Source: a bacterium
GTDB taxonomy: Bacteria > Zhuqueibacterota > Zhuqueibacteria > Zhuqueibacterales > Zhuqueibacteraceae
NCBI GenBank assembly: GCA_044869275.1
Contig: JBIOXB010000011.1
Coordinates: 1 to 36,378 of the forward strand
Length of the DNA stretch: 36,378 nucleotides
Reading direction: 5' to 3'
This document shows, in pieces, positions 7,060 to 36,255 of this stretch (the first letter of the stretch is position 1; each line of letters begins with the position of its first letter). The notes below the pieces were generated by a model that saw only the letters and a list, made by a program, of their open reading frames with translations, had not been told where the DNA came from and ran no database searches. Made by a program: the position numbers and the translations under genes.

Positions 7060-7998
7060 ATGCCCCACAAGATCGGAGTGGTTGGAACCTTCATTCGCGA
7101 CACGATTATCACCCTGGATAATCGCAAGATCGAAAGCATTGGCGGTCTCTATCACACCTCGGCCTACCTCGCCAGCCTGGCGGCGCCTGGCACCGTGATC
7201 CGACCGTTGTGCCATCTGGGCCAGGATTTTCACGAGAACGTGTGGCGCGCGCTCTTGGCTTTCGGAGCGGAAATCGATTTTGATTTGGTGCGCACCAGCG
7301 AGCAAAACAATACTGCCGTCACGTTGATTTATCGCAGCGCGGAAACGCGGGATGAAATCACCACCGCGCCCATGCCGCCGGTCACCCGCGCACAGATGCC
7401 CGCTTTGAGCGATTGCGACGCGGTATTGATCAATCTCATTACCGGTGAGGATGTGGAGCTGCAGGCCTTGCAAGATTTCAAACGCCGGTCGCCCGCGACC
7501 CTGGTTTATATGGATTTTCATTCGCTCGCGCTGGGCATCGATGCCCAGGGCAAGCGCTTTTACCGCCGGCCGGTATCCTGGCAAACCTGGCTGCAGGCGG
7601 TCGATATTTTGCAGCTCAATGAAAAAGAAGCGGCGACGCTGGCCGGCTGGGATACGGACCCGGAGGCCTCCGATTTCGTCGCGTTCGGCGAAAGCTTGGT
7701 GGGAGAATATGTCAGAGCGTGCCACCTCACTTTTGGCAGCCGCGGGTCGATTTTGTTTTATCGTTCGGCAGACAAGATTCTGCATGAATATGTCCCGCCC
7801 ATGGGCGGTGTGCAAACCGTGGACATCATCGGCTGCGGCGATGCCTTTGGCGCAGCGTTTCTGACGCGTTTTCTTGCGACCGGAGATCATGTCGAAGCGA
7901 CGCGTTTTGCCAATCGTGTGGCCGGCTTGAATTGCACGTTCTTGGGGTCGCTGACGCCGGAGAAGTTTCAAGAGCACGTGGCCCGGTTCTTGTCGTGA
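7060..7998 (+). CDS. PfkB/ribokinase family carbohydrate kinase
   Basis: GG motif near the N-terminus, LQLNEKEA, TFGSRGS, and the signature VDIIGCGDAFGAAF. Confidence 0.9.
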   Translation: MPHKIGVVGTFIRDTIITLDNRKIESIGGLYHTSAYLASLAAPGTVIRPLCHLGQDFHENVWRALLAFGAEIDFDLVRTSEQNNTAVTLIYRSAETRDEITTAPMPPVTRAQMPALSDCDAVLINLITGEDVELQALQDFKRRSPATLVYMDFHSLALGIDAQGKRFYRRPVSWQTWLQAVDILQLNEKEAATLAGWDTDPEASDFVAFGESLVGEYVRACHLTFGSRGSILFYRSADKILHEYVPPMGGVQTVDIIGCGDAFGAAFLTRFLATGDHVEATRFANRVAGLNCTFLGSLTPEKFQEHVARFLS

Positions 7999-8040
7999 AG
8001 GCAGCGCCGGCGTTGCTCTATCTGAATTCCCCGGGAGAGA

Positions 8041-8958
8041 ATGATCTTGAAATTGATGCCAAAAAAGTTTCTGGTTTTTGGTGCGAACGGCCTGCTCGGC
8101 CAAAACTTGGTGCACGCTTTGCGTGAGGACTATGAGGTTCTGGCAGCCGGCCATCAAGAGGATTTTGTGCTGGCATTGCCCGAGGTGCATTATGTCTGTT
8201 GTGACATTACCGATCGCGAGGCTGTGCTGAAGGCGGTGAAAGGCTTTATTCCGAATTTCATCATCAATGCGGCGGCGTTTACCGACGTCGACGGCAGCGA
8301 AATACAAAAAGAGAAGTGTTGGAAGGTGAATGCCACTGCCGCCGGTTATCTTGCCGCAGCTGCGTTTCGCCTGGGCGCGCGATTGATCCATGTCAGCACG
8401 GACTACGTTTTTGACGGTACCGCGGCGCCTTACACGGAAGAGAGCCGGCCGCAGCCGCTGGGTTATTACGGTCGCGCCAAGCTCGCGGGCGAGAACGCTT
8501 TGATCAGCAGCGGGGCTAACTATGCGATCGCGCGCACGATGGTGCTTTATGGCGCGGGCAAACACGTTCGCCCAAGTTTCGCCACGTGGTTGATCACGCA
8601 ATTGCGCGCGGGCAAGCCGGTGCGCATTGTGAAAGATCAATGCGGCAATCCCACGCTCGCGAGCGAATTGGCACTGGCGCTGCGCCGGTTGGCGGAATCC
8701 GGACGCCACGGGATTTATCATGTCTGCGGCGCAGAGACACTTTCGCGGTACGAATTCGCCGTGCGCCTCGCCCAAGTATTCGAGCTGGATCAAGAGTTGA
8801 TCATGCCCGCCACCACCGCGGAGCTCGCGCAAGCCGCCAAACGCCCGGCCAATTCCGGCTTTGATATCTCCAAGGCCGTGCGCGAGCTGGGGGTTTCGAT
8901 GTCGAACGTTGAGCAAGGCTTGAGGAAATTTCGCCGGGAGCTGGAACTCCTGAATTGA
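8041..8958 (+). CDS. rfbD: dTDP-4-dehydrorhamnose reductase
   Basis: GANGLLG, NAAAFTDVD, HVSTDYVFDG, YGRAKLAGE, DQCGNPT, KRP.NS. Confidence 0.92.
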   Translation: MILKLMPKKFLVFGANGLLGQNLVHALREDYEVLAAGHQEDFVLALPEVHYVCCDITDREAVLKAVKGFIPNFIINAAAFTDVDGSEIQKEKCWKVNATAAGYLAAAAFRLGARLIHVSTDYVFDGTAAPYTEESRPQPLGYYGRAKLAGENALISSGANYAIARTMVLYGAGKHVRPSFATWLITQLRAGKPVRIVKDQCGNPTLASELALALRRLAESGRHGIYHVCGAETLSRYEFAVRLAQVFELDQELIMPATTAELAQAAKRPANSGFDISKAVRELGVSMSNVEQGLRKFRRELELLN

Positions 8959-27203: not shown

Positions 27204-27824
27204 ATGACAGATTATTCCGCCGCGGTGGCGCATTTGCGCCGCGCCGATCCCATTCTCGCGAAAATTATCGCACAATTCGGCCCCTGTACGATCAAGCTCG
27301 ACCGGCGCTATTTTCGCCTGCTGGTGGAAGCGATTCTTTCCCAACAACTCTCGACCAAAGCCGCGGCCACGATCACGCAGCGTTTCTACCAAGCGCTGCA
27401 GCGACAAATCGTTCCGCAGGCGATCTTGAAGCTGCGCGACCCCGATTTCCGCAGCGCCGGTGTGTCACGCCAAAAAACCGCGTATCTGCGCGATTTGTCG
27501 GCAAAGTGGGGAGCGGGTGCCATCAATCCTCGCCGTTTTGCGCGCTTGGACAATGAAGAGATCATCGCCATGCTCACGCAGGTCAAAGGCATCGGGCGCT
27601 GGACCGCAGAAATGTTTTTGATGTTCGCGCTCGGCCGCGCGGACGTGCTCCCCGTGGGTGATCTCGGGTTTCGCAACGCGCTGAGACATGCCTACCGCTT
27701 GCGCAAGCTGCCCGACGCCAAACACATACACGCGCTGGCGGAAAAGTGGCGGCCCTATCGCAGCGTCGCGACCTGGTATTTTTGGGCGAGTTTGGATAAC
27801 AAACCTCTTGCAGAGACTGAGTGA
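27204..27824 (+). CDS. alkA: DNA-3-methyladenine glycosylase II (HhH-GPD)
   Basis: ILSQQLSTKAA, LTQVKGIGRWTAEMFLMF, LPVGDLG, WRPYRSVATWY.W. Confidence 0.92.
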   Translation: MTDYSAAVAHLRRADPILAKIIAQFGPCTIKLDRRYFRLLVEAILSQQLSTKAAATITQRFYQALQRQIVPQAILKLRDPDFRSAGVSRQKTAYLRDLSAKWGAGAINPRRFARLDNEEIIAMLTQVKGIGRWTAEMFLMFALGRADVLPVGDLGFRNALRHAYRLRKLPDAKHIHALAEKWRPYRSVATWYFWASLDNKPLAETE

Positions 27825-28474
27825 AGCCGCCTATGGACGCCGTGCAAAAAATCTTGCGATTGGGTCTGCTCGCGCTTTTTTTGGCGCTGTTGATCGGCAT
27901 CAGCATTTTGCCAAACAAGCCGGTGCTGTGGATTTTCCTGGCACTCTTGATTGCCGGGCGCGCCGCGGAATTGTTCCACCCCGCCGCCGAGGCGCTGGCA
28001 GAATGGCACCGCTCGGCCGGGCACCCGCGCTGGCTCCTGTGGCTCTCGGGCTTGACATTCATCACCAACGTCGCGCTGCCAATTTTGGATTATCGCTACC
28101 GCGGCGAAGTTTTCTGGGCCAGCCCCCTGCCGCGCGAAGCTTGGTGGAGCTGGCTCGGTCTGCTGGGCCTGCTCGCGGGTGCGGCGCTGCGCTGGCAACA
28201 CTTTCTCAATGTGCCCAAACCGCAGCAGCCGGCAGCGGCCAAATCGGCGGCGAAGCGCAAGCGCATTTCTGAAGCCGATGAAAATGAAGTTCCAAAATAT
28301 GATGCGAATTATTTGGCGCAATTGCATCATCATTTCAGCCGCGCCGCCGGCCTTTCGTATCTCGGCACGGCCGTTTTGTTTACCAGCCTTTGGGGTTTGC
28401 TGGCGCTCGCCCTGATCGTCTTGCCCACCATGCTTTATCGCCGCGAAAGCAAAGAGCATGCAGTGACTTCTTAG
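27821..28474 (+). CDS. Integral membrane protein, remotely ICMT/PEMT-like
   Basis: Several TM segments; GTG start overlaps the alkA stop. The 'G..LR....' and 'YLG......S' layout resembles ICMT, but the RHP motif is absent. Confidence 0.65.
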   Translation: MKPPMDAVQKILRLGLLALFLALLIGISILPNKPVLWIFLALLIAGRAAELFHPAAEALAEWHRSAGHPRWLLWLSGLTFITNVALPILDYRYRGEVFWASPLPREAWWSWLGLLGLLAGAALRWQHFLNVPKPQQPAAAKSAAKRKRISEADENEVPKYDANYLAQLHHHFSRAAGLSYLGTAVLFTSLWGLLALALIVLPTMLYRRESKEHAVTS

Positions 28475-31400
28475 CCCGCCAGCCGCGCGCGAGCCATTTT
28501 CATCAGCTCGGCAGTCAACGACTCTTGCAGAGACTGCGGGCAGCCGGCTTCCCGCAACAGGCGTTTGATTTTGCGCCGCATTTCACGCTGCACCTCTTGC
28601 TTGCGAGGCCAGTCGACCACCGCAGTTTCCGGCGCGAGCACAATCAACAATTCGTGCGCCAGCTTTTCCTGTTGCGCATTTTGAACTTGGGAATCGCCTT
28701 CCTGCGGCGCCAAGAATCTTTTTAAGATTCCTGCAAAAGCCAGCACGTGCGTGGCGTCCGTGCGTTCGCCTTTGTCGAGGCGCAGCCGCATCGCTTCGGC
28801 GTGCAGTCTGGCAAAGACGGTCGCCTCCTCCAACCGGCCGAGTTGGCGCTCGATTTCGAGCTTTTCCACGCGTTGCTCCAAAGCGCGATAATAAGCCGGA
28901 TCGGCCGGCGCGGCGCGGTGGATCTCGCGATACAGCACGTGCAACAGGCGCAAAATCTTCGCGGCGAGCGTTTCAAATGTCTCCAGCTCCAGCCAAAAGT
29001 CTTGCCCGTAAAGCGAAGCCTCTTCGCGAATCTTCGACGGGCTGTGCAGGCGCGCTTCTTCTTCAAACAACCGGCTGAGTTTTTGGCTGGGATGTGCCGC
29101 CGCCAATGCTTCATCAAAATAAAACGCCGCAGCTTCCCGCCGGAGTTGATCCCACCTCGAGGCTTCCTGCCAAACAGTTTCGTGGAGAATCTTGGGCAGC
29201 AACTGATCCAGCCAGCGCGTCAAGCGCCGCCAGGCTCTGGTAAACGCGGCGCGTCTTTCCACTGCCGCCAGCGCCACCAAGTCATGCTCGCTGCGGTGGG
29301 GTTCCGCGGCATACTCAAAAAGCGCCGACAATTCGCGCCGCCACCAGCGCAATTCTTCGAACTGAGAGAATCCATACCGGTCCGTGATTGCCGCGGCAAT
29401 CTCCACCGGCGCGGCCGCCGCGCTTTCAGGCTCGCTCTGGATTACGCCCCAGTAATCAACCAACAAACCAAACGTCTTATTTTCATTGTGGGCGCGCTGC
29501 GTGAGCGCAGCAGCTTCGAGCACAGCTTCTTCTTCCAGTCGCCGGTCGATATAAACCGCTTGCACGTGCGGTGTCGAGAAATGTGCCGGCAAATTCTCAG
29601 CAGCAATCAGCAACGACGGTGCGCGCAGATCTGCAAATCTGCACAGAATTTCTTCCGCCTCCCTCGGCACGCGCGATTTCGCATTTTGTTGCTGGAGTGG
29701 GGCAGTGCTTTCCGCCGGGGGCGGCAGAACAACGACTTGGCCGGGCATTTTTTCTGCGAGCAGCGCGAAGTAGCGTGCCGCCAGGGCATTATCGGCTGCA
29801 AGCAGAATGGCGCAATTGCCGTTGGCTGCGATCTCCTGCCGGAAGTGCAGAAAAATATCGTCGGTGATCGCGCGCAGGCGGATTTCGTTTTTGGCCCCGT
29901 CAGGCGCGGACCAAAGGCTGAGACTTTCCGGCGTCCCGCGTTCGGCCATTGCTTCGAGAGGGGGCGGGTGCGCCTCGCGCCTCGCGAGGTGCCATTCGGG
30001 CAATCGCAATTCAAACTTCACGGGAAGAATATAACCTTCGCGTTCCGCTTGCTGGTGAGAGTAGACATGAATCTCGTTTTGCAAACTGCGAGAACGCGCG
30101 CCGCTTTTCGGAGTGAAAGAAAAAGAAGTGAATGCCACAATGGCGGCATGCGGCAAGGCGTGTTCGAGCTCCAGCAGGAATTCGCTTTGTTCGCGGTGCG
30201 GCAAGGCTTCAACCAGCACGATCAAGGGCGCGGCAAGAAGCGGCGGGAAACGCCTGCCGGCATGCTGCTCCGCTTTAATCGCGAGGTGAAATTGCTTCGG
30301 CGAAACGGCGACGGCATCACTCCCAGCCTCCTGTAAAGCCTGCACCAGGTCTCGGTCTTCGGCCAAAGGCGACAAAGGCGGCCCTTGGCTCTGCTGCCCC
30401 CCGGCATGGAACAATTCGATCAAATCCAGCCGCGAGCCGAGGAGGAGCAGCCCGTGCTGTGCGAAACGCGCCTCCTGCCGCAGCTTGCTGGCCAGCCAAA
30501 ACAGGCTGAACGACCTTCCGGTGCCGGCCGGATGCACGATTGCGCCGCTCGCCGTCAGTAACGACCCGGGCTCGGCTTGGGCGAGGCGGCTGTATGCCGC
30601 TTGTACGGCATGAAACTGGTGGCACCAAGCCAGTTTTTTCTCCGGCCCGCGCGCGCTGGGAACAAAAGCGGTGAAATTGCGGAACAACTCGAGAAGATGG
30701 TGGGGCGGGAACATGCCCGCCAGCAGAACGTCCTGCGCCGTGGGCAATTCGCTTTCACGATCCGGCGTTTGCCGCAAACGGGCGCGCACTTCTTCCCAGC
30801 TCAGCGGTGAACAGTCCTCCCAGGTTTTGAAATCCTGCGCGCCCGCAGCAACGCCACCATAACAAGCGGCATTTTTTTGCAAAACGACGAGAAAATGAAC
30901 GGTATAAAACAGGCGCTGGATTTCGTGCAGCGCCTGCAATTGTTGGAGACGTTCTATGCCGCGGCGCAAGCCTTCGGTTTCATGCATGGCGCGCGCTTCG
31001 AAAACGGCGAGCGGGATGCCGTTGACAAAAATAACGGCATCGAGCACGCGCACCCCGCCGGCGCCGGCGAATTGAAACTGCTCGACGATGAGAAAATCGT
31101 TGCGACCGGGATTTTCAAAATCAAAATAGCGAAGTGGCGTTCCTGTTTCAGCCGGGGCCGCGCTGGTTGCCGGCGCACCCGGCGCTTGCTCAAGTGTGGC
31201 AGGCGCGTGCCGGCCACCGGCGACCATCTTGTAGTAAAGCTCTTGTTGCACGGCAGGCAACGGCGCATGCGCCGGCGAGGCCAGATCGTTCACGCCCCTG
31301 CGCAACTCGGTTTCGGAAAGATCGGGATTGAGTTCGCGCAATTTGCGCAATAAGCGGCCGGCTAGAATCGCTTCACCCAAGGTTTGCCGTTCCAGTTGAA

Positions 31401-31503
31401 AAGCCGGGCTGTCCTGGTGAAAGTATCCGTACTGAAATGCCTGCCGCAGGAAGCTCAAGGCGGGCCGGAGTACTTCGATGTTTTTCACGCCGGTGGAATG
31501 CAT
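28471..31503 (-). CDS. Type I restriction HsdR-like protein with degenerate nuclease and helicase motifs
   Basis: LRYFDFENPGRNDFLIVEQF, D...FVNGIPLAVFE, LLELFRNF, Y...AEREG.ILP and C-terminal VDW..K.EVQREMRRKIKRLL are HsdR hallmarks. Catalytic motifs are altered (EAR, AGTGRS, VEALPH). ATG 31503 is preferred over TTG 31545. Confidence 0.88.
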   Translation of the reverse strand: MHSTGVKNIEVLRPALSFLRQAFQYGYFHQDSPAFQLERQTLGEAILAGRLLRKLRELNPDLSETELRRGVNDLASPAHAPLPAVQQELYYKMVAGGRHAPATLEQAPGAPATSAAPAETGTPLRYFDFENPGRNDFLIVEQFQFAGAGGVRVLDAVIFVNGIPLAVFEARAMHETEGLRRGIERLQQLQALHEIQRLFYTVHFLVVLQKNAACYGGVAAGAQDFKTWEDCSPLSWEEVRARLRQTPDRESELPTAQDVLLAGMFPPHHLLELFRNFTAFVPSARGPEKKLAWCHQFHAVQAAYSRLAQAEPGSLLTASGAIVHPAGTGRSFSLFWLASKLRQEARFAQHGLLLLGSRLDLIELFHAGGQQSQGPPLSPLAEDRDLVQALQEAGSDAVAVSPKQFHLAIKAEQHAGRRFPPLLAAPLIVLVEALPHREQSEFLLELEHALPHAAIVAFTSFSFTPKSGARSRSLQNEIHVYSHQQAEREGYILPVKFELRLPEWHLARREAHPPPLEAMAERGTPESLSLWSAPDGAKNEIRLRAITDDIFLHFRQEIAANGNCAILLAADNALAARYFALLAEKMPGQVVVLPPPAESTAPLQQQNAKSRVPREAEEILCRFADLRAPSLLIAAENLPAHFSTPHVQAVYIDRRLEEEAVLEAAALTQRAHNENKTFGLLVDYWGVIQSEPESAAAAPVEIAAAITDRYGFSQFEELRWWRRELSALFEYAAEPHRSEHDLVALAAVERRAAFTRAWRRLTRWLDQLLPKILHETVWQEASRWDQLRREAAAFYFDEALAAAHPSQKLSRLFEEEARLHSPSKIREEASLYGQDFWLELETFETLAAKILRLLHVLYREIHRAAPADPAYYRALEQRVEKLEIERQLGRLEEATVFARLHAEAMRLRLDKGERTDATHVLAFAGILKRFLAPQEGDSQVQNAQQEKLAHELLIVLAPETAVVDWPRKQEVQREMRRKIKRLLREAGCPQSLQESLTAELMKMARARLAG

Positions 31504-31509
31504 GCAAAA

Positions 31510-31538
31510 ATAGTAATACGGATTTTTGTGAAACGCAA
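31510..31538 (-). promoter_or_regulatory. Candidate sigma-70 promoter, leaderless, for the hsdR-like gene
   Basis: TTGCGT-17 bp-TACTAT ending 6 nt before ATG 31503; no SD sequence visible. Confidence 0.55.
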
Positions 31539-31587
31539 ATTCCAAGGCGCGAGGAAGGCGGTGGGGGGCAGGTTGGAAATTTGAACC

Positions 31588-31667: not shown

Positions 31668-33395
31668 TCACGTTTGCGCGAAACGCGCTAAATCCTGCAC
31701 CAGGCGGTCCATCTCCGCTTCCGCTCGCCGGCATTCCGCTGCCAGCGTTTGCAAGTCTTGCAGCTCTTGTGTGAGATTCAGGGAAAGCCCGGCGCGTTGT
31801 TTGGCGCAGTAGTGTGCCGGCGTCAGATAGTGATGCTGACTGCACGCGATTTCGCTCAGGGTGGCGGAGGCGAAGCAGCGCGCCACCGCCGCGGGAGACG
31901 CCAGCCATTGGTGCAGGGCGGCGCTCATGTTTTGGAGCTCGTACATGTGGTCGCGTGCCTCTTGCTCGGCAAGCGCTTGGCCTTGCCTTTCCTGCCGCCA
32001 AATTTCCCGCAGTCGCAGATGCCGGCTCTCTACCGCCGCTTTCCTGCGCTCCAATTCCTCGGTAGTGTATTCCACCAGTTTTTCCCGGCCGTCACTGTGA
32101 AAAATTGCCGCGATCGCCAACCCCTGCAAGTCGCCCTTTTGTGCTGACGTGATCGCCTCCGGAAAGGCGCCCGCGTCGATGAACAGCACGCGTCCCTGCC
32201 GCTCCGCCGCTTTGGCGCGATTCAGCACCAAAATGGCGGAGGGCAGCTTGGCATCATACAGCCGGCCCGGCGGCAGGCTGATCACGGCTTCGATGGCATC
32301 CACCTCCTTTTGCAGCAAGGCGCGGCGAATCTGGGCTTCGGCGCCGCCGCGAAACAACACGCCTTGTGGCACCACGAGCGCGGCGCGTCCCCGGTCCGTC
32401 AGCACGGCCCAAATGTGCAGCACGAACGCCAAGTCGCCGCGTTTCGGAGGCGGCATCCCCGCTGCAAAGCGCTGCCAGGGATCCTGCTGCGCTTCCGTAT
32501 GGCCCCAATCCGAAACCGAAAAAGGCAGATGCGCCGGCATGAGATCGAAGCGCTGCAATTCTCCGGATTCCGCCAGGAGCGGCGAAGTAATGGCATTGCC
32601 GGTCCAGATCAGGTGATCGGTAAGATCGTGCAGCAGCAGGTTGAGCTTGCACAACGACCAGGTCGCGGCATCGATTTCCTGGCCGTAGAGCGAAAGGTTT
32701 TGTGGATTATGGCCGCGGTGCTCCACATGTTGGGCGCAAGCGATCAAGCTGCCGCCTGTACCGCAGGTGGGATCGCAGATGCGCATGCCCGGTTGCGGCT
32801 GCAACAAATCGGCGAGCAGTTGCATCAAGGGCGGCGGGCTGGCGAAGTCCGGCTTTTTCCGGCTGTGGGTGCCGGCCAGCTCGGCAATTGTTTGCGCGCA
32901 AGCGCTTCCGATCATTTCCGGAGAAAACAAATTGCGGCGGGACAAGTCGATCTTATCGAAGTGTTCCCACAAGCGGCAGCATAGTTTTTCCCAGTGTGGT
33001 TGCTGCGCTGTTCCCGCTGCTGGGGCGAAGCGGAGTGGTGCGAAAACGCCCGAGAGCATGTGAGCATAGCGGTTTTCGAGCGCGGCGCAAGCTTGCGCAA
33101 ATTTTTCAGCGCAATGCCCTTCGGCTTCGGCGATCGCCTGCCATTTTGCTTCCGCCGGCAGAAAGAAGCGATATTCATCGGGATCTTCTGCCACGAGGCG
33201 CGCTTCGGCTTCGGAACGGCCGGCGGTTGTTTCCTCCTGTAGAATCGTGCGCCAGCGATCTTCAAACTCATCGTTCACACTCTTGAGCCAAAGCCACGCG
33301 CACAGCAGAAAACGGCTTTCCGGGGTATCGCCGTGCTCGCGCAGAATTTCCAGCGCCCCGCGCAGGTGAGTTTGCAATCCTTCAAGAGAAAGCAT
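31668..33395 (-). CDS. Type I HsdM-like N6-adenine methyltransferase homolog with altered catalytic motif IV
   Basis: HsdM N-terminal domain (L..HL.....LR, LK..ND.F, FFLP.EAKW), motif I DPTCGTGG, YGQE, PP..RGDLAF, GVLFRGGAE..IR, AVI.LP, VLFIDA. NPPF is replaced by HLPF. Confidence 0.9.
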   Translation of the reverse strand: MLSLEGLQTHLRGALEILREHGDTPESRFLLCAWLWLKSVNDEFEDRWRTILQEETTAGRSEAEARLVAEDPDEYRFFLPAEAKWQAIAEAEGHCAEKFAQACAALENRYAHMLSGVFAPLRFAPAAGTAQQPHWEKLCCRLWEHFDKIDLSRRNLFSPEMIGSACAQTIAELAGTHSRKKPDFASPPPLMQLLADLLQPQPGMRICDPTCGTGGSLIACAQHVEHRGHNPQNLSLYGQEIDAATWSLCKLNLLLHDLTDHLIWTGNAITSPLLAESGELQRFDLMPAHLPFSVSDWGHTEAQQDPWQRFAAGMPPPKRGDLAFVLHIWAVLTDRGRAALVVPQGVLFRGGAEAQIRRALLQKEVDAIEAVISLPPGRLYDAKLPSAILVLNRAKAAERQGRVLFIDAGAFPEAITSAQKGDLQGLAIAAIFHSDGREKLVEYTTEELERRKAAVESRHLRLREIWRQERQGQALAEQEARDHMYELQNMSAALHQWLASPAAVARCFASATLSEIACSQHHYLTPAHYCAKQRAGLSLNLTQELQDLQTLAAECRRAEAEMDRLVQDLARFAQT

Positions 33396-33516: not shown

Positions 33517-34116
33517 CTACTCTTCTACAAAAAGCATATTGATCGCCAGGTGTTGCGCCAGAGTCAGGCGCTTTTCCGCCACTTGCATGGCCAGGCGGTG
33601 CTGGCGCTCGGCCGACTCCAGCAGGGCAACGGCTTTTTGCTGAACTTCTCGGGGCGGTACGGGGATTGAGATTCTTTTGACCAGACGCACGGTCAAGTTT
33701 TTTTGCGCCGTGGTGGATTGGGAGGCGCGCAACAAAGCCGCTTGACCGGCCGGGTGCTGGAAGTATGCTGCCAGGAGCTGATAGGCCAATTGCGGTCCGC
33801 AGTGAATGGCCATGATATTGGAATCGATCAACATGCCCTCAGCTTTCTCCGGCGCCACAATGATGCGCAAATCCGTGCCGCGGCAGGGCAGTAAAACATC
33901 GTGCGCCGCGATCCTGTAATTCTCCAAATTCGTGCGGGGCGAAAGATGGACGATTTCAATGGCGTTGAAGTCGATTCCCTGCGAACGCAGCGCTTTCATC
34001 CCCAGCAGCGGCACGGCAGGATTGTTTTCGTCCCAGGACAAACCGCGGCCATGGCGCGCCACGCCCACGAACACTTCCGCGATTTCACCCAATTCCAACT
34101 CTGGATACTGTGACAT
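33517..34116 (-). CDS. Half-size HsdS-like specificity subunit (single TRD plus conserved helix)
   Basis: LGEIAEVFVG, DVLL..RG, TAQKNL....K.I.IPVPP.EVQQK and a C-terminal long helix; about 199 aa from ATG 34116. Confidence 0.82.
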   Translation of the reverse strand: MSQYPELELGEIAEVFVGVARHGRGLSWDENNPAVPLLGMKALRSQGIDFNAIEIVHLSPRTNLENYRIAAHDVLLPCRGTDLRIIVAPEKAEGMLIDSNIMAIHCGPQLAYQLLAAYFQHPAGQAALLRASQSTTAQKNLTVRLVKRISIPVPPREVQQKAVALLESAERQHRLAMQVAEKRLTLAQHLAINMLFVEE

Positions 34117-34140: not shown

Positions 34141-34422
34141 TCATGCATCCACGATTTCAACGTCGCAATACAACAGACCCTGCAGGTCGCGCGAATGGAC
34201 GTAGCAACGCACGGTCCTGCCTTGCAACCACTCTTCTAATTGTGTTTGGGCTTCTTCTCCGGCGAGTGTAACGTAGACAGGCGAGCTGCTGGCGATGCGG
34301 ATGCTTTCCCGGCTGTGATAAGGATAGTCGTTGTGCCGGCCGACGAGCGTAACTTGCATTTCAAAAGTATCACCCGACAACACCAGCACCACCGGACCCT
34401 GAATCCAATCTTCACTGCGCAT
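34141..34422 (-). CDS. Small staphylococcal-nuclease-like OB-fold protein, degenerate active site
   Basis: V..VLSGDTF, IRI, G.EA...L...L.GRTV, RD..G.LYCDV match the SNase scaffold; GAAAGG RBS; no signal peptide. Confidence 0.7.
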   Translation of the reverse strand: MRSEDWIQGPVVLVLSGDTFEMQVTLVGRHNDYPYHSRESIRIASSSPVYVTLAGEEAQTQLEEWLQGRTVRCYVHSRDLQGLLYCDVEIVDA

Positions 34423-34553
34423 GATTTGCCTTTCTGTGGCCCCGCCACGAATTGAATGATCCTTCCGGCAAAATGCGTTTTGACATCTTTGACCAGTATC
34501 GTGCTCAGCCTGCTTCGTTGTGAGGGCTGAGGCAAGATTGTCTGCAGACGCTG

Positions 34554-34582
34554 ATGATAAGACATTTCTTTAATTTTGTCAA
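34554..34582 (-). promoter_or_regulatory. Sigma-70 promoter for the SNase-like/hsdS/hsdM operon
   Basis: TTGACA-17 bp-TATCAT on the minus strand, with an AT-rich tract upstream. Confidence 0.7.
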
Positions 34583-34676
34583 CAAATATTTTATACATGT
34601 CATATTAATCATAATAATAATTAGTAACGTGATTATTAATTTTACAATTTCAACTTAGCTTACCTTCATCATTTCA

Positions 34677-34752
34677 TGTCATCCCGGAGGGATCTTTTTC
34701 CGCACTTGGCACAGTGCTTATGCTGAAAAAGGTCCCGCAAGGCGGGATGACA
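34677..34752. repeat. REP-like long imperfect hairpin
   Basis: TGTCATCCCG / CGGGATGACA outer arms (10 bp) and GGGATCTTTTTC / GAAAAAGGTCCC inner arms. Confidence 0.75.
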
Positions 34753-35223: not shown

Positions 35224-36255
35224 ATGAAACGAGAACTACTTACTTTGGTCGGTTGCCTAGCCATCTCTAGCTTTTTGATGCAGGCATGCGACAAAGAACA
35301 ACCGCTGGGAACCGGCGCTGACCGCATTGGCGGCGAAGAACTGAACCTGGAAAAAGACTTCGGCGGCTTTACCACTGACGACGAAGCCGTGATGTTCAAC
35401 AATGACGAAGTGAGGGCTGAATTCCTCGAGGACGGAAGCGTGAGCGATCCGGTGAGTGACCAGGCCACGTTGAATCTCTCCGCGGCCGACGCCCCAAAGG
35501 CCATTGAAGTACGCCTGACTTGGGGATTGCTCGCCGGCGATCCCACCGCCGAGGAATTGATTGATTGGTCGGGCATGGTGAGCGTCTCGCGCGGCGTGTT
35601 GGCAGTGCTGAAAGTGATTCGCTTTGAATCCGAACTGCAGGGTGACCGTTTGCACCTGCCGCGTGCCAACTCCAGGGAGTTGGCTTTCAGCTCCTACGCG
35701 GATAAACATTATGATGGTTTATTGCTGCTGATCGTGGATGATGACCTCAGCGGCACGCCCGGGGAATTCACCATTCAAGCCGGCAATTACTCGCGCACAT
35801 TTACGTTCGAGGAGCTCGCGCCTTTGAATATCGTTGAGCCGGTCGGCCCAAATGCGAACGCGGTCTCCATCATCGGCCGCAGAAGAGGAGCGCAGGCTCC
35901 CGACGGCGGCTTTCTCTCTGGCAGCTGGCTGGAGACGAATAATCACGGCGGCAGGTTTTCCGGCCGCTGGATCAATAGCGCCGGGGAGAACGCCGGCGCG
36001 GTTTGCGGCATCTGGGGCGTGCGCCGCAACGGCGAGCAAGTATTTTACGGCAAATATATCGGCTTGAACGGCGAGTTTGCCGGGTTGCTCGGGGGCCATT
36101 GGAGCTATGCTGGCGACGAGCATACTGGCGTGTTCGAAGGCAGTTGGTTCAACCTCGACCTCCAGGAAAGCGGCGTCGTGGCCGGGAATTTCCAGTTGGG
36201 CCAGTCCTGTGAGGACTGCGGCTTTTTCGGCGGCCGCTGGTTCAAGCAGCAATAA
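35224..36255 (+). CDS. Hypothetical lipoprotein with C-terminal Gly/Trp beta-repeats
   Basis: MKR + hydrophobic stretch + MQAC lipobox; repeated G.F.G.W units in the C-terminal third. Confidence 0.85.
   Translation: MKRELLTLVGCLAISSFLMQACDKEQPLGTGADRIGGEELNLEKDFGGFTTDDEAVMFNNDEVRAEFLEDGSVSDPVSDQATLNLSAADAPKAIEVRLTWGLLAGDPTAEELIDWSGMVSVSRGVLAVLKVIRFESELQGDRLHLPRANSRELAFSSYADKHYDGLLLLIVDDDLSGTPGEFTIQAGNYSRTFTFEELAPLNIVEPVGPNANAVSIIGRRRGAQAPDGGFLSGSWLETNNHGGRFSGRWINSAGENAGAVCGIWGVRRNGEQVFYGKYIGLNGEFAGLLGGHWSYAGDEHTGVFEGSWFNLDLQESGVVAGNFQLGQSCEDCGFFGGRWFKQQ

Follow-up and report, generated by a model that had tools for sequence, protein, structure and literature searches.

A catalytically disarmed type I restriction gene set retained in three genera of Candidatus Zhuqueibacteraceae as a possible DNA-binding regulatory complex

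We analysed a stretch of 36,378 nucleotides from a bacterium of the family Candidatus (Ca.) Zhuqueibacteraceae (KSB1; assembly GCA_044869275.1, contig JBIOXB010000011.1, positions 1 to 36,378 of the forward strand), referred to here as the window. Its reverse strand carries four genes that together resemble a type I restriction-modification (RM) system: a small gene that we call X, a one-domain hsdS (half-S), hsdM, and hsdR (Table 1). A first-pass annotation of this DNA had described the HsdR homolog as a protein whose nuclease and helicase motifs are degenerate. Beyond that claim, we find that M, S, and the fourth gene are disarmed as well and that the set, inherited vertically, belongs to the core genome of three genera of the family, labeled here g1, g3, and g4.

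Table 1. Coordinates of the genes, domains, and control elements in the window
Feature	Coordinates	Strand	Description
Candidate operator	34621..34639	.	Interrupted palindrome, TTARTAA-N5-TTAYTAA; upstream of the promoter in 11/11 genomes
Promoter of X-hsdS-hsdM	34554..34582	-	Sigma70-like, TTGACA-N17-TATCAT; TTGACA in 11/11 genomes
5' leader	34423..34550	-	Structured; two mutually exclusive pairings, one over the ribosome-binding site
Gene X	34141..34422	-	93 aa; truncated thermonuclease (SNase) OB-fold without the catalytic residues of intact relatives
One-domain HsdS	33517..34116	-	199 aa; HsdS_short/Esub1-like
Disarmed HsdM	31668..33395	-	575 aa; motif IV HLPF, GEFYTP changed to DFASP, LFYGTGIP lost; motif I DPTCGTGG, motif II GQE, and C-terminal helix kept
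hsdR promoter	31510..31538	-	Sigma70-like, TTGCGT-N17-TACTAT, 6 nt before the ATG
Disarmed HsdR	28471..31503	-	1010 aa from ATG (frame opens at TTG 31545); nuclease fold, two RecA-like, helical, and C-terminal domains
HsdR basic helix, residues 975-998	28552..28623	-	D978, W979, R987, R990, R991, K994, R998; predicted HsdM-binding

The longest hsdR frame (28471-31545, minus strand) opens at a TTG and encodes 1024 residues, the form used for residue numbering throughout. The database version of the protein has 1010 residues and matches the ATG at 31503, from which the first-pass annotation also read the gene; because of this match and of the promoter motif ending just upstream, that ATG is probably the true start, and the close spacing suggests that the transcript is leaderless. 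The upstream motif, as TTGCGT-N17-TAnTnT, is found in 6/6 genomes of g1 and g4 and in 0/5 of g3. Hidden Markov models from Pfam match HSDR_N (residues 30-234), SWI2_SNF2 (309-524), T1R_D3-like (643-698), and T1RH-like_C (847-1019) domains, so that the domain order of an HsdR is complete, and the TIGR00348 model scores 157 bits, below its cut-off of 284.55. The AlphaFold2 model, built on a 50-row alignment with a predicted local distance difference test (pLDDT) score of 84.1, resembles EcoR124I HsdR (7bst_C) over its full length (Foldseek, E = 7e-25). A single-sequence search of the Protein Data Bank (PDB) with HsdR and a single-protein scan of the genome contigs gave no match. The Ala/Pro-rich insertions that had been noted in HsdR are real, corresponding to four loops (residues 111-133, 536-545, 612-626, and 704-712) that are of low confidence in the model and vary among orthologs.

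All of the degenerate motifs reported in the first-pass annotation lie where it had placed them: EAR of the nuclease (D169...E183-A-R185, 31041-30991), AGTGRS in Walker A (30528-30511), VEALPH in Walker B (30213-30196), FTSFS in motif III (30132-30118), AHFS in motif V (29586-29575), and EAAALTQR in motif VI (29517-29494). We aligned 14 full-length disarmed proteins (P0002-P0006, P0008, and L003-L010; the fragments P0007 and L011 were excluded) with the 13 closest canonical ones (P0009-P0021) and counted retention at columns invariant across all 13. The disarmed proteins form a single clade (FastTree support 1.0), sister to the active P0009-P0012. Because the degenerate motifs occupy the same columns as the canonical motifs of 13/13 active relatives, we can rule out canonical motifs hidden elsewhere in HsdR, and in the window protein every motif of superfamily 2 (SF2), from I to VI, departs from its canonical form. 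Among nuclease residues, D169 is retained in 14/14 and E183 in 10/14 of the disarmed proteins, with both K185 and the tyrosine of QxxxY at 0/14; mutation of the residue equivalent to K185 in EcoR124I (K167A) leaves no cleavage (PMC2602864). In the motor domains, the canonical residues absent from all 14 are Q340 of Walker A, G474 of motif III, T654 and D657 of motif V, and R681 and N683 of motif VI, with Q677 (4/14) and R684 (6/14) of motif VI and H449 (2/14) of the DEAH column kept in a minority. Motif VI arginines are required for ATP hydrolysis by SF2 helicases. Retention is higher at K344 of Walker A (9/14) and at D446 (12/14) and E447 (10/14) of Walker B, and since both Walker motifs are intact in members such as G007, nucleotide binding may survive in some of these proteins. 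The earlier description of HsdR thus needs two amendments: the nuclease has lost catalytic residues throughout the clade but keeps its domain fold as well as it keeps the C-terminus, and the degeneracy of the helicase motifs, complete in the window protein and clade-wide at the motif V and VI residues absent from all 14, does not extend to Walker A and B in many orthologs.

Loss of key residues is equally evident in HsdM, for which we compared 20 clade proteins with 20 canonical ones. N289, the motif IV asparagine that binds the target amino group (PMC3874165), E183 and T186 of GEFYTP, and F379 are each found in 0/20 clade proteins versus 19-20/20 canonical proteins. We infer from its motif position that F379 belongs to the aromatic cage, whose role has been described (PMC3874165, PMC9613975). 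Motif IV reads HLPF in g1, EPPF in g4, and HPPF, HPPM, or HPPL in g3, the motif III aspartate is present in 5/20, and the motif VIII aromatic residue in 0/20. Residues of S-adenosylmethionine (SAM) motifs I and II are kept throughout (D208, P209, C211, G212, G238, and E240, all 20/20), as are P291 (20/20), F292 (18/20), and the C-terminal helix residues (18-19/20); in three clade genomes, motif I reads GAAR. Some g4 members have a shorter HsdM of 507-525 aa. One disarmed HsdM (P0130; EPPF), encoded on a contig of 5722 bases, has a long and deeply placed branch and possibly represents a further lineage of the clade.

The half-S protein comprises one domain and a dimerisation helix. It matches the profile of Esub1 over positions 22-183, and Esub1 is also its best full-length solved match (E = 5e-8); its nearest representatives are mostly stand-alone proteins of ≈200 aa. 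Identity to the window proteins is 51-86% for half-S, 40-72% for M, and 33-61% for R. The invariant loops of half-S are partly conserved family-wide, with R79 present in all 101 relatives. No long two-domain HsdS is encoded in the window or in the fetched loci that extend past M; a genome-wide PF01420 search was too insensitive to exclude a distant one. Gene X encodes an oligonucleotide/oligosaccharide-binding (OB) fold structurally like staphylococcal nuclease and aligns at 45% to P0424, which holds the full DGDT, DAPE, and YGR set. Of these motifs, DGDT is found in 4/11 X proteins, and none of the 11 has the DAPE Asp or Glu or the YGR Arg. A Pfam sequence search for the thermonuclease family (PF00565) gave no match for the 11 members, nor did one profile search with X. 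Besides the 11 genomes that carry the rest of the set, X occurs as one distant stand-alone copy in G154. This relative (locus L227, contig C94, ≈7890-8219) has a similar TTGACA promoter and two leader hairpins, without the palindrome and with no restriction genes nearby.

A strong match to hsdR without an internal stop was found in 11 of the 61 genomes searched, and these are all members of g1 (2), g3 (5), and g4 (4); the eight genomes of a fourth genus, g2, gave no strong match. All four genes are single-copy in all 11 genomes, hsdR being divided between two contig ends in G010. The half-S family is similarly confined (11/167 genomes of the phylum at E ≤ 1e-97; the next match is at 1.4e-9), and the clade-type HsdM is found in the same 11, interrupted by a contig end in G010 and G013. 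In an rpoB tree of 21 genomes (four of the eight of g2; G015 gave no rpoB match), g1, g3, and g4 group apart from g2, and trees built from S, M, R, and X agree with it in genera and pairs. The ratio of nonsynonymous to synonymous substitution (dN/dS; Nei-Gojobori method, nonindependent pairs, synonymous distances from 0.16 to >1) is 0.18-0.30 for R (seven pairs), 0.14-0.20 for M (seven), 0.04-0.28 for S (nine), and 0.02-0.22 for X (nine), compared with 0.09-0.18 for neighboring genes (seven). With open frames, dN/dS of 0.02-0.30, and trees congruent with rpoB, these are not pseudogenes: broken frames, dN/dS near 1, and patchy presence are all absent. The 14 open hsdR orthologs together with dN/dS rule out a sequencing error or pseudogene in the window, and a recent horizontal island is ruled out by a gene G+C content equal to that of the window and by gene trees that follow rpoB.

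X, S, and M are adjacent in 11/11 genomes. By contrast, hsdR directly follows hsdM only in G000 and G001 and is unlinked in at least 8/11 genomes, yet it is always retained; it lies ≈58 kb from hsdM on the same contig in G007 and, in g3, behind a hydroxyacyl-CoA dehydrogenase-like gene (identity read from sequence). A gene for a 217-aa membrane protein without a family match (27821-28474, plus strand) converges on hsdR with overlapping stop regions and adjoins hsdR in G001 too. The window's genome, which is 94% complete, holds no other N6_Mtase or HSDR_N match. No active type I system that the set could partner was thus found there, which argues against a helper role. Canonical NPPF HsdM genes are also present in most clade genomes, and no effector gene linked to the locus was seen in the fetched loci.

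HsdR's C-terminal part had been described as well preserved, and residues 975-1014 are in fact the most conserved of 25 windows along the protein, with an identity of 0.55 between genera versus 0.42 among active relatives. The corresponding values by domain are 0.40/0.44 for the nuclease, 0.30/0.60 and 0.30/0.51 for motors 1 and 2, 0.37/0.40 for the helical domain, and 0.40/0.38 for the C-terminal domain, and dN/dS pooled over three independent pairs is 0.16, 0.29, 0.25, 0.15, and 0.13, respectively. By these measures, constraint is relaxed on the motor domains of HsdR and not on its nuclease fold or C-terminus. The C-terminal domain of HsdR has been proposed to contact the methyltransferase (PMC5248579), and complex prediction for HsdM with HsdR residues 706-1024 gave a score of 0.85, a value attained by 116/157 solved complexes and 2/215 mismatched pairs, versus 0.00 for the best control; runs share at least 97% of contacts, with a partner pLDDT of at least 76. 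In this model, the basic C-terminal helix of R is predicted to bind an acidic patch of M. The score shows likeness rather than binding, since a similar complex has already been solved and active relatives are in the alignments. Nevertheless, conservation within the disarmed clade is a point independent of the complex model: residues of the predicted interface are present in 14/14 disarmed proteins on the HsdR side (D978, R987, R990, K994, and R998) and in 20/20 clade proteins on the HsdM side (D71, D73, E74, M204, R205, and D260), and mean conservation at the interface versus the rest is 0.73 versus 0.61 for R and 0.75 versus 0.58 for M (permutation values of 0.019 and 0.002, which ignore kinship). 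Conservation among orthologs thus differs between the two kinds of site, with the predicted interface invariant and catalytic residues lost. Taken together, clade-wide catalytic loss, relaxed motors, and an invariant predicted interface lend support to the earlier proposal of a scaffold that neither cuts nor translocates and may still dock on the M/S core. We consider it quite likely, from sequence comparison and modeling, that the set is disarmed, under selection, and still assembling.

To place the set among known systems, we surveyed 80 metagenome loci related to the active sister P0137 at 32-52% identity; these are relatives and not the ancestor. A half-S gene stands just before M in 31/80 loci (29 of the 59 with room for one), and of those 31, a long S after M is also present in 26 and R in 17; X is found in 0/80. 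A further group of active relatives (L106, L111-L114, L129, L132, L151, L153, L155, L156, L158, and L162) has an HsdM of 803-923 aa with no separate half-S seen upstream. Judged by gene order, the layout of half-S, M, long S, and R is that of hsdRSMS, known from Staphylococcus xylosus (PMC10030836) and BlihIA (PMC12429846). Those systems likewise have a ≈200-aa one-domain HsdS, conserved over its whole length, directly before hsdM (11/11 in our genomes). There, however, specificity comes from the long HsdS and both M and R are active, whereas here M and R are disarmed and the fetched loci contain no long S. EcoR124I/HindI-like enzymes (TIGR00348; PDB 7BST, 6H2J) share the four-domain HsdR fold and the HsdM fold, and R-M docking like theirs is predicted; they differ in that the set described here has lost the nuclease Lys, the QxxxY Tyr, helicase motifs V and VI, and the NPPF Asn and is inherited vertically in single copy. 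One-domain HsdS proteins form dimers that recognise interrupted palindromes (PMC3874165), as in enzymes with half-S homodimers (EcoR124I delta50/NT, EcoDXXI truncations, NgoAV, and M.AhdI; PMC3874165), which are active methyltransferases with many genomic sites; the present set has a near-unique candidate site and an apparently inactive M. The half-S fold is also that of Esub1 from Streptococcus pyogenes (PDB 8VSQ, 8VSR; PMC11754733), a stand-alone protein that forms homodimers, has a conserved cleft for DNA, and is compared by its authors with a transcription factor. It is encoded apart from hsd genes and has no known site, unlike the half-S described here, which is kept with a disarmed M and R. 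Control of RM promoters through a palindrome is also a feature of RptR and of dual-function methyltransferase repressors (PMC12255303; PMC12707154), and an inactive M.EcoRII mutant still represses; RptR, though, is a separate small protein that binds TAGCTA, and the repressor methyltransferases, components of active type II systems, have their repressor domain fused to the enzyme. With the catalytic signatures of the nuclease, SF2, and NPP(Y/F/W) motifs lost, the set is a derivative of a type I system and not a member. A literature search, with most subscription journals outside its scope, yielded no report of this clade or of a type I complex disarmed in all its parts.

The control region upstream of X offers a candidate binding site for such a complex. 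The TTGACA element lies 160-268 nt before X, and the interrupted palindrome starts 47-48 nt (g4) or 53-57 nt (g1 and g3) upstream of TTGACA, two classes of position about one helical turn apart; its 5-nt spacer is free. At no more than one mismatch, the palindrome is the sole site in 7/11 genomes, and shuffles of each region attain the observed match at P ≤ 0.010. Scans found 0-6 scattered matches in g2 genomes and 0-28 with a reversed control, so that position, and not count, is the signal. The search for further operator copies gave one profile match in the genome and, in relatives, extra pattern matches without common context; before the half-S genes of active systems, the palindrome is absent in 29 loci, and the RptR site, tried as an identity for it, is a different motif. 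A genome-wide screen for bipartite palindromes in excess or deficit returned as its extremes apparent repeats or low-complexity words, none of them the candidate site. Strongly enriched genome-wide are TCCC-N8-GGGA, CCCG-N6-CGGG, and ACAC-N7-GTGT (also at ≈34727-34750 in the window), which are probably small dispersed hairpin repeats. In the 150 nt before half-S genes of active systems (L096-L175), a perfect 7-bp inverted repeat occurs in 8/29 loci versus 2.4 expected from shuffles, with no common sequence.

In the 5' leader of the window and of L074-L083, a central GAUUUUGCCGG can pair either with an upstream arm or with bases beside the start codon, in the manner of a translational switch. 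The two pairings are mutually exclusive in both g3 and g4, each with some compensatory changes, and the motif GCCACAGAAAGGC is nearly invariant. Rfam assigned the leader to no family, with one chance-level match. Divergent from X lies a gene for a 343-aa lipoprotein-like protein without a Pfam match (35224-36255, plus strand), which is found beside X in the window and in 7/10 related loci at 47-66% identity; as the palindrome is located between the two genes, it could also serve this one.

We tentatively propose, at somewhat less than even confidence, that the set is an hsdRSMS-type system that has given up both the long HsdS and every catalytic activity and is maintained as a regulatory complex that binds DNA. 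An hsdRSMS-type ancestor would have settled behind gene X, lost its long S, and then lost catalysis. Without the long S, two half-S chains would pair as in Esub1, and this pair, joined by two M chains, would recognise an interrupted palindrome. If TTARTAA-N5-TTAYTAA were that binding site, the complex would control its own operon, and R, with no motor function, would serve as an accessory subunit, stabilising or modulating the core on DNA. Its signal might be received through the partly kept SAM pocket of M or might come from proteins that attack type I enzymes, which is a guess. The fuller version, in which a whole type I enzyme has been domesticated as a sequence-specific regulator of the core genome, with R, M, and half-S reading their own operator and sensing SAM or anti-restriction proteins through old pockets, alongside a dead thermonuclease and a switch-like leader, is possible but more doubtful.

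Several points weigh against this proposal. The palindrome consensus is derived from the same 11 sequences in which it was tested, in DNA that is 77-93% A+T, and another transcription factor could bind it. Because the candidate site is near-unique, no regulon is visible. The promoter may predate the RM genes, as the stand-alone X of G154 has a similar one without restriction genes. The conservation of the half-S loops is no proof of a clade-specific target, being partly family-wide; the hsdRSMS authors consider sequence recognition by HsdS_short unlikely (PMC10030836), and Esub1 was not shown to bind HsdM (PMC11754733). The R-M score may stem from likeness to solved EcoR124I complexes. Finally, it is not obvious why a regulator would need an R of 1000 residues.

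The retention of the whole-complex architecture, nuclease fold included, would also be expected if the complex served in defence as a decoy or sensor, either soaking up or detecting anti-restriction proteins (Ocr, ArdA, or paratox-like) or blocking foreign DNA by binding without cutting. Esub1, a relative of half-S, is bound in its DNA cleft by a phage protein (PMC11754733). The canonical NPPF HsdM genes of most clade genomes would give such a decoy something to protect; the window's genome (94% complete), however, has no other N6_Mtase or HSDR_N match to protect, and no effector gene is linked to the locus. Typical defence genes, moreover, are not single-copy, vertical, slow-evolving, and embedded among housekeeping genes, as the genes described here are. 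On balance, we regard a defensive role as unlikely.

Somewhat less probable still is that M and half-S still methylate DNA with a changed motif IV, as an orphan epigenetic methylase of a short palindrome to which R is only a disarmed partner. In favor of this are the kept SAM motifs I and II and the kept P291 and F292, and a histidine at the first position of motif IV is found in some amino-methyltransferases. Type I methylation is also known to regulate genes independently of HsdR (PMC13624659). Nevertheless, motif IV differs between genera with no single new form fixed, motif I has become GAAR in three genomes, and the motif III Asp and the motif VIII aromatic residue are mostly or wholly gone.

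A scaffold without sequence specificity, whether structural or protein-binding and linked to the nucleoid, to repair, or to RNA, would accommodate the constraint on all folds and on the R-M surface, the lack of a visible regulon, the OB-fold of X, and the structured leader, with the palindrome bound by an unrelated factor; yet conservation is higher in half-S, the part that reads DNA, than in M or R, and we give this explanation little weight. It is improbable that the genes are a relic in slow decay, or that the parts persist for unconnected reasons and have stopped acting together: the motif losses that differ between genera, the separation of R from the operon, the shortened M of some g4 members, and the faster-evolving motors are outweighed by frames without internal stops in the strong matches, dN/dS of at most 0.30 at synonymous distances of 0.16 to >1, a promoter motif before the relocated R, and invariance on both sides of the predicted interface.

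As a rule, type I systems are mobile, patchy in distribution, and variable in specificity, whereas this set is fixed and slowly evolving in three genera. Its fixation after the loss of key catalytic residues suggests that the assembled machine has a job that involves no cutting, translocating, or methylating. Domain-based tools label the locus an ordinary restriction system, so the number of defence systems counted in these genomes may be too high. The locus also provides a natural test of the role of HsdS_short, which is left open in the hsdRSMS, BlihIA, and Esub1 papers, and supplies a candidate binding site with which to approach it. If the regulatory proposal is true, DNA-binding regulation would be a role for the widespread and unexplained one-domain HsdS proteins.

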